A stretch of 61,889 nt of DNA, filler included, from Globobulimina sp. (taxonomy: Eukaryota): the NCBI GenBank assembly GCA_003354225.1. It is 20 parts of 20 records of this genome, joined end to end, with 100 filler letters (N's around TTAATTAATTAA, not from the genome) between each part and the next. Parts side by side here need not be neighbours in the genome. Positions count along the whole stretch, not along the records: positions 21,710 to 24,709 come from PIVH01004076.1; 19 more parts are not named here. One strand, written 5' to 3'. Within the stretch, counting starts at the first letter, position 1. The number at the start of each line of letters is the position of its first letter. The position numbers and the translations under genes were made by a program. Below the pieces are notes generated by a model. It saw only the letters and a program-made list of their open reading frames with translations, was not told where the DNA came from and did no database searches. Below are positions 3,003-59,308 of this stretch, piece by piece.

Positions 3003-3102
3003 NNNNNNNNNNNNNNNNNNNNNNNNNNNNNNNNNNNNNNNNNNNNTTAATTAATTAANNNNNNNNNNNNNNNNNNNNNNNNNNNNNNNNNNNNNNNNNN
3101 NN
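3003..3102. other. Artificial contig spacer (N44-TTAATTAATTAA-N44), first of 19
   Basis: The same six-frame-stop linker recurs about every 3.1 kb (next starts 6105, 9206, 12307, 15408, 18509, 21610, 24710, 27810, 30910, 34010, 37110, 40208, 43306, 46404, 49502, 52600, 55697, 58794). Contig lengths fall from 3002 to 2996, so adjacency across linkers means nothing. Confidence 0.99.
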
Positions 3103-6104: not shown

Positions 6105-6542
6105 NNNNNNNNNNNNNNNNNNNNNNNNNNNNNNNNNNNNNNNNNNNNTTAATTAATTAANNNNNNNNNNNNNNNNNNNNNNNNNNNNNNNNNNNNNNNN
6201 NNNNATATTGTGAATATTGTTTTTTTTGTTCAACTAAATCTTTGTGTTTATGCATCTCTCTTTTTGCTCGTTTTTCTTGTTTCAAATCGTGAACTGTGGC
6301 AACAGCTAAATATGCATTATATTGTAATCAATTTACAACGTAATACATATATTATGCAATATCATACCAGTCACAGCAGCTATGGCACCAATTGCCAATC
6401 CACCAATGATAAACCCACCCGTTTTTCTAGCAGCCATAATCAGCGAAAAAAGTTGTGTTTGCAAGTGAGCTAATTCTGTGCAATGATATTTGCCTCAGAA
6501 TTAAAATAAATACAAAACAAGACAACCGAATACGAAGAAGAG

Positions 6543-21709: not shown

Positions 21710-22021
21710 AAGCTCCTTAATAAGCGCCATAATAAGGCATCGAAGAATAACAAATTTGGCAAAAACAAAAACAAGAAATCATTCTATACCAAATCCTTCC
21801 AAAATAAATTGGGTAAATCCAACAAAAACAATAAAAACAAAAACAAAAAACATAAAAAGCATTATAGCGATTTAACGGATAGACAGAAATTCGGAAATAT
21901 CAATAAGAATATTTTAGAATTGGCGCCCTCTTTAAAACCATTACAAATTCTGTTAGATAGCAATGCGCAAAACATTATAAATAATACAATGTCCGAAGAC
22001 GATGAAAAAATGGAAAGCTGA
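21710..22021 (+). CDS. Lys/Asn-rich upstream ORF (ORF1-like) of the PLE, 5'-partial
   Basis: Open from the contig edge (KLLNKRHNKASKNNKFGKNKNKKSFYTKSFQNKLGKSNK...) to TGA at 22019-22021. Same frame as the RT ATG at 22040. Confidence 0.6.
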   Translation, partial: KLLNKRHNKASKNNKFGKNKNKKSFYTKSFQNKLGKSNKNNKNKNKKHKKHYSDLTDRQKFGNINKNILELAPSLKPLQILLDSNAQNIINNTMSEDDEKMES

Positions 22022-22039
22022 CATTCTAATCACTTAAGA

Positions 22040-24098
22040 ATGAACATTTCCGGTCGTTATCGCTCAAAAACTCCGCCTCCTCAATCTTCCATTAAATACA
22101 AGGAATATAGAAAAAGGAAACGCGAATTCCCCAAATCTATATTCAACAAAACCGAGTTAGATTCATTACCATTCATTGTACGTACCATTGGCCATAAAGG
22201 CCGTAATTATACATTGGATAATCCATCGATTAGTATTTGGACAAAAAACCTGAAGCGCTCAAAAACCGCCTTCAAAAAACGTTTATCTTCGCATTTTAAT
22301 AAATTATACAAAAACGATAAACGAGATTCGGAGTCCGAACTAAAAAATGCTTACAAATATTTAGATATTAATTTTAATCAACATATTAATAATAAAATTA
22401 GAAAATCCTTTTTTAACAAAAAGTATTTCATTGAAAGGCAAAATTCAACGCAAGCAGTTCGAGGAATTTTGCAAGAAATCAAAAACAACAAATTTACGAT
22501 TATCGAATCAGACAAAAAGATGGGATCCGTTTATATCGATGTTTGTGTCCTCGATTCCGAGGTAGTGAAGTTTTTAAATGGCAAACAATTTGAAGTTGTA
22601 TATGCCTCCGACATTTTGGTGGCGCGTAAAGTCGCAAAATTAGTCAGAATACTCACATTCAAACACGTTAATTATTTCCGCGAGACTTGGCAAAATAACC
22701 ACATCTACAGAGACTGGCAAAAAATTGAGAGTGACGCCAAGATTTTGCCTCTCCCGAAACTAAGACCGATGATGAAATTACACAAAGTTGGCTGGCGATT
22801 TATATTTAATCCCGGCAATTTTTACACAATTTTTATCTCAGTGTATACCGGAAACGTTTTAGATGAGATTTTAATGTGTTATCAAGAGAAAAATAAGCAA
22901 TTTATTGTATTGAACAATTCATTTGAAGTCATAAATAATTACAAAATCATCAACAATGCAAATCATCCATTTACAAATACAGATAGATATAGTTTTGACT
23001 CAGACGTAGTCGCATTGTATGATTCCATGATTCTGGATCAATGCATAGAAATTCTGCAATATATTCAGGATGATTTGAAGTATAATCATTTTAAATACCA
23101 TTTTTTGATCGACAGTCTGTATTTTTTTTCGCGATAATACTTATATTAAATACAAAGACTGGTCGCGTCGAATGATAATTGGTATTGGAACAGGTACATC
23201 GCATTCGGGTCCATTAGCAAATTTAGTTTTATATGGATACGAAATCAAGAATTTAAATATCTTTTTGCACTCAATCAAAATCAACATTTATTGTGATATT
23301 CCATTAAGGAAACGGTACATCGATGATCTTAAAACGATTATCGATGTCGATGATGATCGATTTAATGATGAAATTGAGAAATTAGGATATTTAGAGTCTA
23401 TATCAACGGCTTTAAACGACATTTATCCCAAAAACCTTGTTTTAAAAACAAAATTCGCGAAAAGATCAATATTTTTAGACATGAAAACGATTATTTGTCA
23501 CCAAACGAACACAATCGTGTCGTTTATGCATGAAAAGCCATTAAATTTGCACATTAATTTGCATTTCAACTCAAACAATCCATTCAATCAAAAAGAATGC
23601 ATATTCTTTTCATTTTTATTTAGATCCATTTGTTTGAATGATCACGAATTAAAACACAAGTCATTTACAAAAAAACTAATCAAAAGAATGTTAAACCGCG
23701 ATTTTCCGGCTGTGGTAATCAGGAAAATCCTCAAAAATCGCAAATTACCTCAATATATAAACCGCGACAAATATTTGAATAAATTGGAAACTAATCGCCT
23801 TGAAAAATATTATCGCAAATTTATTAAGGTTTATAATGAAAATATTTGGGGCGACGACAGATTTTTAGATGAAGAAGAATTAAATTCATTAATTAATAAA
23901 TATGACAATGAAGAAGAGAGTGATGACATAAAAACGATTTATTTCAAGAAAGTATATCAACAGTTATTCGATGATGATAATCGATTTAGAGAAATATTAA
24001 GACAATTTAAGAGCATATTACCTATTGATTTTGCAGAGAATATTAAACTATCTCTTTGCAATAAAACTGATGATAAACTCATGAGATATTTAAATTAA
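22040..24098 (+). CDS. Penelope-like reverse transcriptase, about 685 aa after correcting one +1 frameshift in the T8 run 23122-23129
   Basis: IFNKTELDSLP..IGHKGRNY (PLE N-terminal motif), IIESDKKMG, KLHKVGWRFI, DSDVVALYDS (motif A), DNTYIKY..GIGTGTSHSGPLANL (B), RYIDD (C), FLDM (E), EKPLNLHINLHFNSNNP..K (thumb) and NRDFP. The ORF ends KLMRYLN* with no endonuclease. Confidence 0.9.
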
Positions 24099-24399
24099 AT
24101 CTTTTGTGTTTGTTTTATATGTTTTTTACCTATTTAATTCTCGTAATTTTTTCTATGTATAGATACTTTGTAAAATTTATATTTTTGTATTTTTTATATT
24201 GTTTTTTATGAGAAAATGCGCATTCGTTTTACTTTATTTTTCCAATTTTTTATCTTTTGTTTTTGTTACTTTGTGTTTGTCAAATTTTGTATATTCGTTT
24301 GTGTTTTTATTTTTGTTTCACAGAAAGTGGAACTGACTCAAAGTTTTTCTGACATTTTATCAAGAAACTTTAAGTTTTTCCTTTCACCTTAGTTTATAA

Positions 24400-24437
24400 A
24401 GTGTGAATCAGTCCTTTTGTGGACGAAACTAGTCACT
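24400..24437 (+). ncRNA. Non-canonical minimal type I hammerhead ribozyme (predicted cleavage after C24434)
   Basis: AGU / GUGAAUCA / GUCC-UUUUGU-GGAC / GAAA / CUAG-UC / ACU. Stems I and II, GAAA, the palindromic ACUAGU stem III and the GUC site are all present. The core differs from CUGANGA. Confidence 0.7.
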
Positions 24438-24488
24438 AATTTAATTTAACAATTGTTTTATTATTCCGTTGAAGAGTGAATCTCGTCT

Positions 24489-24707
24489 CTAAGCATATTG
24501 TTTAGAATCACGCTCCCCCCCATCATCATTTTCAGCATTGTCAATCTCATCTTGTGAATGAGATAAATTTAAGTTTACAATATTATTGGATTTATTTAAT
24601 AATAACAGGTCTAAATAATTAATATAATCAAATTCTGTGATTAAATTATATTTTTTGAATTCGGATTTATATTTAACTTCTCTTAATTGTTTGAAATCTT
24701 TGTTAGA
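24489..24707 (-). CDS. C-terminal fragment of a convergent ORF (not in the ORF track)
   Basis: 72 open codons from the contig edge: SNKDFKQLREVKYKSEFKKYNLITEFDYINYLDLLLLNK...DSKQYA*. Confidence 0.45.
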   Translation of the reverse strand, partial: SNKDFKQLREVKYKSEFKKYNLITEFDYINYLDLLLLNKSNNIVNLNLSHSQDEIDNAENDDGGERDSKQYA

Positions 24708-24935
24708 GANNNNNNNNNNNNNNNNNNNNNNNNNNNNNNNNNNNNNNNNNNNNTTAATTAATTAANNNNNNNNNNNNNNNNNNNNNNNNNNNNNNNNNNN
24801 NNNNNNNNNTGCTGGCAAGCAATCCCTTAGACTTAAGTAGACATTAAATGTAACGGTCTCGAAAATTTGTTAGTTGGACAGTCTCTAATGGTGTTATCGA
24901 TCGATCTGAATATTAGTTTAAATAAACAATGGCAG

Positions 24936-25727
24936 TTACGAATAAAACGAGTGTATTTGGCGATCAATATCGTACTTTGCATGAACAATATTATCCAAAT
25001 CATTCCACCATTTATTTACTAACCCACTGTTATATAATATTTTAAACCATGGTGATATGAATACATTTGTATTATTTATCATTTCATCCAATTGATTCGG
25101 AGTACAATATTGAATATCACGCACTTCATTTTCATTGATATTATTTAATGTTATATCTTTTCTTATAATTAAAATATAATCTAATTCATGTTCAGTCCAT
25201 TTAATATCATCACACAATGCTTTGTATAATATCCTTGTCATAAAATTAAAATCTTGTATATTTTTGATTTCATTGAACGGAATTCCGAGTTCAATATTTA
25301 ATCGATTTATTGCTGCATTTTTGACGCCGTCAATTTTAATTTCTAATATATTGTCATTGTTTAATTCACAATGTTCATCTATAAATAATGGATGTGAACA
25401 ACATGTATTTGTCCAATAATTTGGAAATGTTATTTTATGGCTGGCTCTCTGTTGCATTAATAATCTGTTTTCTGAATCAAATAATAATACACTAAATGCA
25501 CGATGTAGCAATTCATTCGTTGATAAATGACATTCTTTTTTTGATGCATTTCCAATTATATTGTCTTCTTTATCCACCAAAATACATTTATCATTTAACA
25601 TTAATTCAATTTGTTTTGTATCATACTCATTAAAGTTTCTTTTCAATGATGAACATACTGACGCGGATCTTGATGCTGACCTGGAAATCGAATTTAAGAT
25701 ACTATTACACCCTTTGAAAAGCGCCAT
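24936..25727 (-). CDS. IDI1: Isopentenyl-diphosphate delta-isomerase type 1
   Basis: CILVD..D..IG..SKKECH, LLHRAFSVLLF, QQRASHKITFPNYWTNTCCSHP, WTEHELDY, NENEV, SPWF. First ATG at 25727. Confidence 0.96.
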   Translation of the reverse strand: MALFKGCNSILNSISRSASRSASVCSSLKRNFNEYDTKQIELMLNDKCILVDKEDNIIGNASKKECHLSTNELLHRAFSVLLFDSENRLLMQQRASHKITFPNYWTNTCCSHPLFIDEHCELNNDNILEIKIDGVKNAAINRLNIELGIPFNEIKNIQDFNFMTRILYKALCDDIKWTEHELDYILIIRKDITLNNINENEVRDIQYCTPNQLDEMINNTNVFISPWFKILYNSGLVNKWWNDLDNIVHAKYDIDRQIHSFYS

Positions 25728-25783
25728 CAACCACCACAATGTTAAACAGTTTTTGTGGTTTTTTTTTAAACTTAACTAGAAAC

Positions 25784-26471: not shown

Positions 26472-27809
26472 ATGAACAGGAATCGTGGACATGATCGGGT
26501 TGTATATTATTATGATTCAGAAGTTGGTAACTTCCACTATGGTCCAGGACATCCAATGAAACCATTTCGTATTGCTTTAACTCATGATTTAGTAACAAAT
26601 TATAATTTATATCGTTCAATGAGTGTGTATCGGCCTCGTCTAATAACAGCCAAACAAATGACAACATTTCATTCAGAAGAATATATTTCATTTTTATCGT
26701 CCATAAATCCGGACAATTATTTCCACAAAAAATATAAATTCAATTTAGAACAATTTACATTAGGGCCAAAATCTGATTGTCCAATATTTGATGGAATGTT
26801 TGAATTTTGTCGCCGATCTGTTGGTGGCTCCATTGATGGCGCCTTAAGACTATGCTACAATTATTGTGATACGGCCATTAATTGGAGCGGAGGCTTTCAT
26901 CATGCAAAAAAATCTGAATCTTCTGGCTTTTGTTACGTCAATGACATTGTATTAGCAATCATTGAATTATTGAAGTTAAGTTAATGTCTATTATCCTTGC
27001 ACTCACTCACTTGAGTCACTTCACATATTATTGCTTTTAACAAACATAGACATTATCAGCGTGTATTATACATTGATATCGATGTGCATCATGGTGATGG
27101 AGTGGAGGAGGCCTTTTATGGCACAAATCGAGTGCTATCATTCTCTTTGCATAAATATGGCGATAATTTCTTTCCAGGAACCGGTTTTTATAAAGATATT
27201 GGAATATCAAACGGCAAATATCATTCCATCAATTTCCCATTCAATGACGGTATTGATGATGATGGATATTTTCGAGTGTACAAGAAAATAATTGATAATA
27301 TCTTTGATAGGTTTAAGCCGAATGTGGTTGTCTTGCAATGTGGCGCGGATTCATTGGCCAGAGATAGAATCGGAGTGTTTAATATATCCACAAAAGGACA
27401 TGGCCGCATTGTGGAATATATGAAGAATAAATATAACCATAATGGTAGTAACCATGTACCAATGTTGGTTATTGGTGGCGGTGGATATAATATTAAAAAT
27501 GTGGCGAGGTTGTGGTGCTATGAAACCTCACTATTATGCAATAAAAGCATATCAAATACTATTCCATATACGCAACATATGAATTATTATAAACCTCATT
27601 TTAAATTACATATTGAATCCTTGCCTTCGATGATGAATAAAAATTCAAATAAATATTTGGATGAAATGACAAATAGGATATTGCAACAAGTTAAACGTAT
27701 TGAAATTGCACCTTCGATACAGATCGGATCACCGCGTATACCGCATATTTATGGCAATAATAATAATAATGATATCAAGATGATGGGTGACGATGAAGAT
27801 GAGATTGCA
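26472..27809 (+). CDS. Class I histone deacetylase (RPD3/HDAC1-3 family), intron 26975-27049, 3'-partial
   Basis: GHPMKP, DCPIFDG, NWSGGFHHAKK, SGFCYVND, YIDIDVHHGDGVEEAF, FFPGTG, LQCGADSL and GGGGY. Confidence 0.97.
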
Positions 27810-28042
27810 NNNNNNNNNNNNNNNNNNNNNNNNNNNNNNNNNNNNNNNNNNNNTTAATTAATTAANNNNNNNNNNNNNNNNNNNNNNNNNNNNNNNNNNN
27901 NNNNNNNNNTGTTATTGGTTTGGATTAAATTTATTTCATTCGACTTCTTGGAGAAAGCAAACATTGTCCCCTGCTGGAGACTGAAGTGCAACTAAGTAAA
28001 TTTACAAAACAAACAAGTAAATGATAGCACAGCTACAAACCA

Positions 28043-52748: not shown

Positions 52749-52816
52749 GTGCACATAGCTCAAATATAGAGCACTGGCGATCGCCAGGGATACAGGTTCA
52801 AATCCTGTTGTTGCAC
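52749..52816 (+). ncRNA. tRNA-like element with a collapsed anticodon loop
   Basis: Acceptor gtgcaca/tgttgcac (1 bulge), D arm GCTC-AAATATA-GAGC, arm CTGGC-GATC-GCCAG, T arm ACAGG-TTCAAAT-CCTGT. Confidence 0.7.
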
Positions 52817-55973: not shown

Positions 55974-56280
55974 GATTTTTACGAGTGAATTTCGTCTAAA
56001 AGTATCGATGACGAAACAGAAATCGACTCGTCCCGATTTACTTTACAAAGCATTGGGAAGTCATGAAGAAGATTTTATGAAGAAGCAATGTCTTCAATGA
56101 AGATGTGTATTATGTTTATGAAGAAGATTTTAATATCCACCTAGCTCAATTGGCAAAGCATTGGTTTCAATGGATTGCAAACCAAATGGATGTATGAGAA
56201 GCAATGTCGTCACGTATTAAAGCGGCGAGAATGAGAAAGAAAAGCCGTCAGATGTTAAGGCGGCGAGAATGAGAAAGAAA
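55974..56280 (+). repeat. Direct repeat copy 1 (hairpin, truncated tRNA-like segment, short tandem repeats)
   Basis: Matches 58314-58625 in long identical blocks with indels; lacks the tRNA T arm. Confidence 0.92.
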
Positions 56281-58313: not shown

Positions 58314-58650
58314 GATTTTTACGAGTGAATTTCGTCTAAAAGTATCGATGACGAAACAGAAATCATATTTGGGACAATCTAAAATCGACTCGTCCCGAAA
58401 GTCATATGGAAGATGTGTATTATGTTTATGAAGAAGATTTTAATATCCACCTAGCTCAATTGGCAGAGCATTGGTTTGAATGGATTGCAAACCAAATGGA
58501 TGTATGTTCGAATCCTACGGTGATGAGATGCAGCGAGAAAGAGAAGCAATGTCGTCACGTATTAAAGCGGCGAGAATGAGAAAGAAAAGCCGTCAGATAT
58601 TAAGGCGGCGAGAATGAGAAAGAAAGCAGTCATATATTAAGGCGGTGAGA
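58314..58650 (+). repeat. Direct repeat copy 2, ending in about 3 tandem units of about 36 nt
   Basis: Unit ttaa(a/g)gcggcgagaatgagaaagaaa(a)gc(c/a)gtca; 2340 nt downstream of copy 1. Confidence 0.92.
58445..58526 (+). pseudogene. Degenerate intron-containing tRNA (anticodon GAA, Phe-like) or tRNA-derived SINE head
   Basis: A box TAGCTCAATTGGCAGAGC, anticodon stem TTGGT/ACCAA with an enlarged loop, B box GTTCGAATC. The acceptor stem has only 4 bp (cacc/ggtg) and the T stem has one mismatch. Confidence 0.65.
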
Positions 58651-59308
58651 TGAATTATTTGGTTCTTATGATGGTGGCTTAAGGCATCGCCATCATCACC
58701 ACAACAACAAACAACCCAAAATTTGAAAAAATGGGAAAAAAATGAAGAAAAAGATGGTGGTATTGGATCACCACAAACTAAATGAAAAAAAGGNNNNNNN
58801 NNNNNNNNNNNNNNNNNNNNNNNNNNNNNNNNNNNNNTTAATTAATTAANNNNNNNNNNNNNNNNNNNNNNNNNNNNNNNNNNNNNNNNNNNNTAAATAT
58901 TCCTGCGAATGCGTGGATACAAAAAATCCCTTGTCAATACCACATTCCGTCGACTCAGTTTCTATTTTGGGTTGTGTTGACAACATATTTCGTCGGTGTT
59001 TTGGTGTAGATTGGATATTCATATTGTTGTTGTTATCCGTTGATTTAAATAATTGAACACAAATAAATGCAATATAACAACACAAAAATAATAAAAGAGC
59101 AACTCTAATGATGCCCTATGTTACATATAATATGGATATAACTGTTTAATATTAAATGATAAATTGATAAATGATTTTACATACATGAGATCGATCCATT
59201 ATTGGAGATGTTGAACTGTATGAACGGTGTTGAACGGTGTATCTTTTGATTATGTAATGGTTACGTTGGGAGTGGAACAAAACGTCATGAAAGAATGATT
59301 AAAAAAAC

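Follow-up and report, generated by a model that had tools for sequence, protein, structure and literature searches.

The window, by which we mean the whole 61,889-nt stretch of Globobulimina sp. DNA that was analysed, filler included, is composed of about 20 separate contigs of 2,996-3,002 nt, ordered by size and divided by 100-nt spacers of the form N44-TTAATTAATTAA-N44 (at 3003-3102, 6105-6204, ... 58794-58893). Adjacent parts are thus not genomic neighbours, and the locus described here is that of a single contig, 21710-24709, in a window that is A+T-rich (26-40% G+C). On its plus strand this contig carries a reverse-transcriptase (RT) open reading frame split over two frames, a T-rich untranslated stretch and a hammerhead-like motif, with a repeated word and a diverged local copy further downstream:

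22040..23137, plus strand: RT ORF, first frame, N-terminal part with the DKxMG motif, up to RT motif A (ORF list, tblastn, alignment)
23109..24098, plus strand: RT ORF, second frame, with RT motifs B and C (RYIDD) and the conserved C-terminal part (ORF list, relatives)
23122..23129, plus strand: run of eight T, frame shift between the ORF pieces (sequence, tblastn bridging)
24099..24399, plus strand: 3' untranslated stretch, T-rich and of low complexity, from the stop codon to the motif
24400..24437, plus strand: hammerhead-like motif, 38 bases (sequence; sole descriptor match in the window)
24400-24402 / 24435-24437, plus strand: helix I of the motif, 3 bp
24403-24410, plus strand: core-like GUGAAUCA of the motif
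24411-24414 / 24421-24424, plus strand: helix II of the motif, 4 bp, with loop 24415-24420 (hairpin 24411-24424)
24425-24428, plus strand: GAAA of the motif
24428-24433, plus strand: six-base palindrome ACUAGU of the motif
24434, plus strand: C17 of the motif, with the predicted cut between 24434 and 24435
24472..24516, plus strand: second AAGAGTGAATC word, a different hairpin (UCUAA/UUAGA), then UCAC and a C7 run, no GAAA
24538..24590, plus strand: diverged local copy of 24401-24465 (local alignment)

The two pieces of the RT ORF belong together, as judged from their homologues. Relatives P0002, P0006, P0007 and others cover 22046-23134 in tblastn, and those homologues that match on both sides all bridge the two frames around 23115-23134. 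The change of frame in the T run may be genuine in this copy, or it may reflect a homopolymer sequencing error; as it is the only visible defect of the ORF, the copy is young or the shift is itself a sequencing error. Downstream of 24095, tblastn of the relatives yielded no protein homology. At the other end, an in-frame TGA (22019-22021) splits a Lys/Asn-rich upstream frame, open from the contig start (21710-22018), from the RT ORF, and homology to the relatives begins only after this codon, from 22046 onward. The frame upstream of the TGA may represent a 5' UTR or a read-through extension, or result from a defect. On the minus strand, an ORF at 24492-24707 has no homologue among longer proteins and therefore gives no element boundary.

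We then considered to which family the RT belongs. The closest homologue in a word-indexed search, and the sole close one, was P0001 (37% identity; precomputed PF26215), while a profile search recovered 736 relatives at E<=1e-3, 15 of these at E<=1e-30. The close relatives P0001, P0002 and P0004-P0009 measure 382-741 aa and share one C-terminal end point, give or take at most two profile positions. In the family alignment an N-terminal DKNMG, RYIDD and a FLD...EKP...H..SNNP...LFRSI block stand out; the window ORF reads DKKMG where the family has DKNMG, so that both carry the DKG-type N-terminal motif, a name that we take from PMC8557442 (excerpt). Neighbours of the ORF in the protein atlas fall into HTH_animal / RVT_1 clusters, with PF26215 and RVT_1, and two relatives are labelled as the EukProt foraminifer Nonionella stella. 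Pfam did not recognize the close relatives that were scanned (P0001, P0002, P0005-P0007). Among the 20 relatives scanned with Pfam, three distant ones (P0050, P0100 and P0126) have a weak C-terminal GIY-YIG match (E 3-5e-4, marginally below the Pfam cut-off) in addition to RVT_1, and eight more show RVT_1 alone. An RT joined to GIY-YIG is the architecture of Penelope-like elements (PLEs; PMC4209133; PMC8557442, excerpt), and because distant relatives display this combination the window ORF is classified as PLE-type. The GIY-YIG endonuclease domain is itself absent here: the window ORF stops immediately behind the RT/thumb region, and so do its close relatives. We conclude that the ORF encodes a PLE-type RT in an endonuclease-less form.

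The motif lies 302 nt downstream of the RT stop codon on the same strand, that is, in the non-coding flank, where PLE hammerheads reside. A sequence-only reading of this DNA had proposed a non-canonical, PLE-like hammerhead at 24400-24437 without reporting the RT ORF. A location behind a PLE-type RT was a risky prediction of that idea, and it came true; the comparison with PLEs is supported by the sense 3' flank in which the motif sits. The letters are those given by that reading (AGT GTGAATCA GTCC TTTTGT GGAC GAAA CTAG T C ACT), and its core call likewise holds: G3, C8 and one extra base, corresponding to a 5' strand GUGAAUCA versus CUGANGA. Measured against the hammerhead core, GAAA and U-C are present and the 5' strand deviates at three nucleotides. 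G24411 pairs with C24424, reproducing the G10.1-C11.1 pair of PLE hammerheads, and ACUAGU at 24428-24433 supplies their palindrome (positions 15.2-16.2 / loop 3).

Alternative registers were considered and rejected. With the extra base shifted between 9 and 10.1 (9a), position 8 becomes U and position 9 becomes C, and by our own reading of the sequence and fold each of the other registers (extra base as 9a, minus strand, long helix III) needs more deviations. An assembly slip at the motif is excluded, because Logan contigs of runs X2 and X3 reproduce 24400-24437: record 13 (24211-24460) differs by 1 letter and 1 gap and record 21 (24256-24476) by 1 gap alone, the single-base gap of these records being at 24440, outside the motif. 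X1-X3 represent one sample, possibly the window's own source, and the agreement at the motif is accordingly not independent biology.

Hammerheads have been found in all PLEs examined by Cervera & de la Pena (2014, PMC4209133), in flanking repeats (pLTRs) and mostly of type I. According to the same study, all that is left of helix III is a palindrome, functional only when two copies meet, the G10.1-C11.1 pair is conserved, helix I goes down to 2 bp in D. virilis, an extra nucleotide is typical between positions 9 and 10.1, and the Cercyon PLEs of Schistosoma display a natural U3-A8 covariation, while a large helix III is reported for endonuclease-less PLEs of fungi and protists. Minimal or dimeric type-I PLE hammerheads were also described by Lunse, Weinberg & Breaker, as cited in PMC6765202. 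Craig et al. (PMC8557442, excerpt) place hammerhead motifs near the 3' ends of PLEs. In their account, only Naiad and most Chlamys lack canonical hammerheads among the PLE clades; the endonuclease-less Athena and Coprina possess them.

Set against these, the motif resembles the type-I hammerheads of PLEs in its position in the sense non-coding flank of a PLE-type RT, its type-I topology, G10.1-C11.1, GAAA, U16.1-H17 and a palindromic helix III for which two copies are required; its helix I of 3 bp is likewise short, as in D. virilis with as little as 2 bp. It is unlike them in having G3...C8 with one extra base before position 8, a helix II of 4 bp where most minimal PLE hammerheads have 6-8 bp, and no unpaired nucleotide between 9 and 10.1, A9 (24410) directly abutting G10.1 (24411). 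The large helix III of the endonuclease-less fungal and protist PLEs is also missing. With Athena and Coprina the locus shares a PLE-type RT devoid of GIY-YIG, together with a hammerhead-type motif in the 3' portion (PMC8557442, PMC6431247; excerpts). In those elements, however, the 3'-terminal hammerhead stands beside reverse-complement telomeric repeats (same excerpts), whereas no recognizable telomeric-type repeat directly follows 24437; a single C7 run (~24509-24521) is located about 75 nt downstream. Unlike Athena and Coprina, the window RT family seems to form a separate group without a name, its labelled members belonging to a foraminifer protein set, and in the literature searched we found no PLEs in a foraminifer relative.

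The core was compared with variants known from nature and from engineering. As in natural U3-A8 hammerheads, which are also recorded by Perreault et al. (2011; PMC3088659, excerpt), the tertiary 3:8 pair of the motif is exchanged for another Watson-Crick pair; unlike in those, the pair is G:C in reverse order. The identical 3:8 swap exists in engineered C3G/G8C double mutants (PMC11167929, citing Martick & Scott 2006; PMC3884650; excerpts), and in the hammerhead of the Anolis Poseidon PLE it partly restores cleavage (PMC11167929, excerpt). These constructs keep the seven-base core, whereas the motif has an extra base. The earlier claim that a 3:8 swap is tolerated is thus backed by the partial activity of C3G/G8C, but not in combination with C17, which G3-C8 disfavours: in PMC3884650 (excerpt) the ban on G17 is explained by a C3-G17 trap, and for the G3-C8 variant a higher activity is stated with G17 in place of the natural C17 (data not shown there). 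The motif has C17, the mirror image of that trap. Perreault et al. (2011, PMC3088659, excerpt) also describe a natural variant of low activity in which a base is inserted after A6 ('A6a'). Its 5' core strand carries the single additional base in the same region as the motif does; C3 and G8 are kept, whereas the motif combines the insertion with the 3:8 swap. In the papers searched we found G3-C8 hammerheads only as engineered forms and none that is natural. The Anolis Poseidon hammerhead further needed the PLE protein to cut, and its catalytic mutants left insertion in vitro unimpaired (PMC11167929, excerpt).

Covariance models and folding were less favourable to the motif. The Rfam hammerhead families (RF00163, RF00008, RF02275-RF02277) have no match in the window at gathering score, nor any at E<=10 on 351 nt, on the 3000-nt contig or on the 55 nt around the motif. 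Our own descriptor detected no canonical hammerhead in the window, and the CTGANGA...GAAA pattern has two matches there, fewer than the chance expectation. The 71-nt fold of the motif region is no better than shuffles (z = -0.12). In the folding model, helix II has a pair probability of 0.83-0.99, helix I reaches at most 0.38 in 71 nt and 0 in 151 nt, and a G3-C17 pair accompanies helix I whenever the latter forms (0.37 vs 0.35-0.38). The secondary structure drawn by the sequence-only reading amounts to -4.4 kcal/mol, or -7.9 with the G3-C17 pair added, and the minimum-energy fold to -8.5; in the latter GUGA (24403-24406) pairs with UCAC (24433-24436), and U4, G5 and A6 are consequently buried. 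ACUAGU could form helix III only by duplexing between two molecules, and the minimum-energy fold of the dimer leaves it unused. The PLE-type palindrome of the earlier proposal agrees with the published description of PLE hammerheads. Together, the G3-C17 pairing, the extra core base and the very short helix I argue against efficient cutting.

The surroundings of the motif are repetitive. GTGAATC occurs in three exact copies in the whole window (17402, 24403 and 24476), two of them at this locus, and with one-mismatch copies at 24540 and 24554 the GTGAATC-type words number 4 in 160 nt. Short internal repeats make up 26 segments within 24390-24620 as compared to a shuffle mean of 10, a value reached by 0/60 shuffles. 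The unit at 24472-24516 has AAG.GTGAATC and UCAC in common with the motif unit, around a different hairpin; this similarity (score 18, reached by 26% of shuffles) is not significant alone. The copy at 24538-24590 aligns to 24401-24465 with a score of 35 vs 22.2 +/- 3.8, which a fraction of 0.006 of 500 shuffles reach, and it shows no helix II pairing, GAGA for GAAA and a gap at the palindrome and cut site. It may be that the cluster of GTGAATC-type words in a retroelement 3' UTR represents a protein-binding word or the remnant of local duplications.

Many diverged copies of the element are present in run X1 (198 contig pieces, identity classes 35/35/49/79, with 79 under 90%). Two X1 contigs remain alike up to 24492, and it is therefore probable, judging from these alignments, that the element repeat includes the motif. 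The RT element is also found in run X5, from another study and organism code, at ~98-99% identity, the listed pieces being outside 24222-24435. Neither tblastn nor blastn revealed other copies of the element in the window. Scans for DNA relatives, with the closer alignment subset A3, recovered none in metagenome contigs, prokaryote genome contigs (protein-based) or viral contigs. A flanking-repeat (pLTR) duplication is not visible in the 3-kb contig, which starts 330 nt before the start codon. Decay from a canonical core is an unlikely origin of the motif: apart from the T8 frameshift the ORF shows no defect, and the copy looks young, which speaks against random decay.

To what extent the motif exceeds chance was estimated by scanning both strands of simulated windows, each 59,989 nt long and generated by a Markov-1 model. 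Such sequence contains fewer hairpins and repeats than real DNA, and the descriptors were defined once the motif had been seen. One descriptor, tailored to the variant (a 3:8 pair of any Watson-Crick type, N7 of 1-2 nt, GAA, an A...U palindrome, H17 and a helix II of at least 4 bp closed by G-C), has the candidate as its sole match in the real window. In 934 simulated windows it gave 5 matches with helix I of at least 2 bp, 2 with at least 3 bp, and all five have T:A at 3:8, none G:C. A fairer neighbourhood descriptor, which required the same helices with a helix I of at least 3 bp and let the consensus core differ by no more than one substitution event and no more than one insertion at any position, matched 6 times in 284 simulated windows, or 0.021 per window, and once in the real one. 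A very loose descriptor matched 954 times in 478 simulated windows (~2 per window), again with 1 match in the real window. The motif is hence rare for a single window (~2%), yet thousands of such quality are to be expected across a scan of many windows. The sense flank, 24099-24709, comprises 611 of 119,978 strand-positions, 0.5% of the window, and a motif this near to the consensus is expected about 1e-4 times within this 611-nt flank (0.021 x 0.5%, our own arithmetic). The feature of the motif that goes beyond chance is its position behind a PLE-type RT.

We also searched the 21 specified bases of core, helix II and GAAAC, with 3 matches in 596 Gb of prokaryote contigs and 0 in viral contigs. 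All 3 are in G+C-rich bacterial MAG contigs, with neither palindrome nor helix I after the match, and their number is at about chance level, as ~1-2 are expected for 21 fixed bases (our own arithmetic).

Considering the position and the sequence together, we deem the chances roughly even that this is a real PLE-type hammerhead-derived motif, i.e. a divergent 3'-flank form belonging to an endonuclease-less Penelope-like retroelement. Homology to PLE hammerheads, for which we infer a similar balance, is suggested by the RT position together with the intact helices, the GAAA, the palindrome and the near-intact ORF. If so, the element would be transcribed through the RT ORF (22040-24098) into the T-rich 3' UTR, where ~300 nt after the stop codon the RNA could form the outline of a type-I hammerhead: a 4-bp helix II closed by G10.1-C11.1, continued by GAAA, ACUAGU (whose helix III needs a second copy), U16.1-C17 and a short helix I. 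On the 5' side, the core strand has GUGAAUCA in place of CUGANGA. An active self-cleaving ribozyme is, on the other hand, unlikely. The lack of a model match, the competing pairings, G3-C17, the extra base and the word repeats weigh against an efficient ribozyme, and they likewise keep chance alive as an explanation. A weak cutter that depends on protein or on dimerization, or a fold kept for another reason such as RT recognition or 3'-end structure, would be more likely than an efficient ribozyme, and, if the motif is real, a drift of the core while the helices stay intact would point to a structural rather than a catalytic role.

It is quite possible, in contrast, that the motif is a chance look-alike without ribozyme function or hammerhead ancestry, i.e. 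a small G+C hairpin in an A+T-rich 3' UTR. Repeated purine-rich words (GTGAAT[C/G]AG, GTGGACGAAA) would then supply the 'UGA' and the 'GAAA', and the six-base palindrome with 3-4 bp of flanking complementarity would be a coincidence. Congruent with this, no Rfam model matches, there is no excess folding energy, the competing pairings are more stable than the hammerhead outline, and the three deviations of the core form a combination that is not described for natural hammerheads in PMC4209133 or in the excerpted PMC3088659. The four GTGAATC-type words in 160 nt, the excess of internal repeats over shuffles and a diverged copy without the hammerhead parts agree with such an origin, as do the ~2 matches per simulated window of the loose descriptor and the occurrence of the 21-base pattern by chance in bacteria; even at 0.021 per window, a scan of many windows must yield many. 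Coincidence does not, however, account well for a motif in the sense flank of the only PLE-type RT among ~20 contigs, on 0.5% of the strand-positions, with an RT ORF that was not used in calling the motif and a joint chance of ~1e-4 under the neighbourhood null (own arithmetic), nor for the intactness of every helix and every 3'-strand core position behind a nearly intact ORF. The third possibility, which we consider improbable, is a structured 3'-UTR element not derived from a hammerhead, with the helix II hairpin and GUGA/UCAC as an RT recognition site or 3'-end structure. The motif unit and 24472-24516 both have GUGAAUC ... UCAC around different inner hairpins, GUGA/UCAC is used by the minimum-energy fold, and the hammerhead catalytic mutants of one PLE were without effect on insertion in vitro (PMC11167929, excerpt); the similarity of the two units nonetheless lacks significance alone, as detailed above, and GAAA, ACUAGU and U-C in exact hammerhead order are left unexplained.

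Returning to the hammerhead-derived reading, its most far-reaching form appears rather unlikely: the motif would be the first natural hammerhead with a reversed G3:C8 pair and an extra nucleotide, active as a dimer or with help from the RT, and processing the 3' region in a hitherto undescribed rhizarian clade of Penelope-like elements that lack an endonuclease. A whole class would in that case escape standard CUGANGA descriptors and Rfam models. A real hammerhead-derived motif would extend the natural sequence range of hammerhead cores, for which only the U3-A8 exchange has been reported so far, and would add a protist lineage to the association between PLEs and hammerheads; descriptor searches would then under-count hammerheads in divergent PLE clades, some of which are now said to lack them. 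The motif also bears on the question of the purpose of PLE hammerheads, cleavage being dispensable for insertion in vitro in one PLE. If the motif is due to chance, it follows that a hairpin followed by GAAAC is insufficient to call a hammerhead.

Other parts of the window yielded additional observations. The next contig holds, at 24936-25739 on the minus strand and 26472-27857 on the plus strand, a NUDIX-domain ORF (Pfam E 4.4e-09) and a class-I-like histone deacetylase in two ORFs (each matching Pfam Hist_deacetyl); the split of the deacetylase into two ORFs implies an intron and confirms a eukaryotic source. Elsewhere, a 51-nt block occurs twice within one contig, at 55974-56024 and 58314-58364, 100% identical and 2,340 nt apart, and ~110-130 nt upstream of tRNA-like sequence, with ACGAG / UGAAUUU / CGUC-loop-GACG / AAAC... 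/ CUCGU as a possible fold. The second copy has a 22-nt insertion before GACTCGTCC. The block is superficially like the motif (GUGAAU ... GACGAAAC), and the look-alikes at 55984-56030 and 58324-58370 (GAGTGAATTTCGTC...GACGAAAC) were rejected as hammerheads, having no A9, no G12 outside a helix and no helix III; neither their match to 24475-24487 nor a 27-aa tblastn match to ORF1 (E 0.28) exceeds chance level. Rfam recognizes two tRNAs, 52750-52816 and 58445-58525 (37.6 and 31.7 bits), and ARAGORN in bacterial mode finds none. A copy at 56137-56196 is without the T-arm part, and the second Rfam tRNA looks intron-containing.
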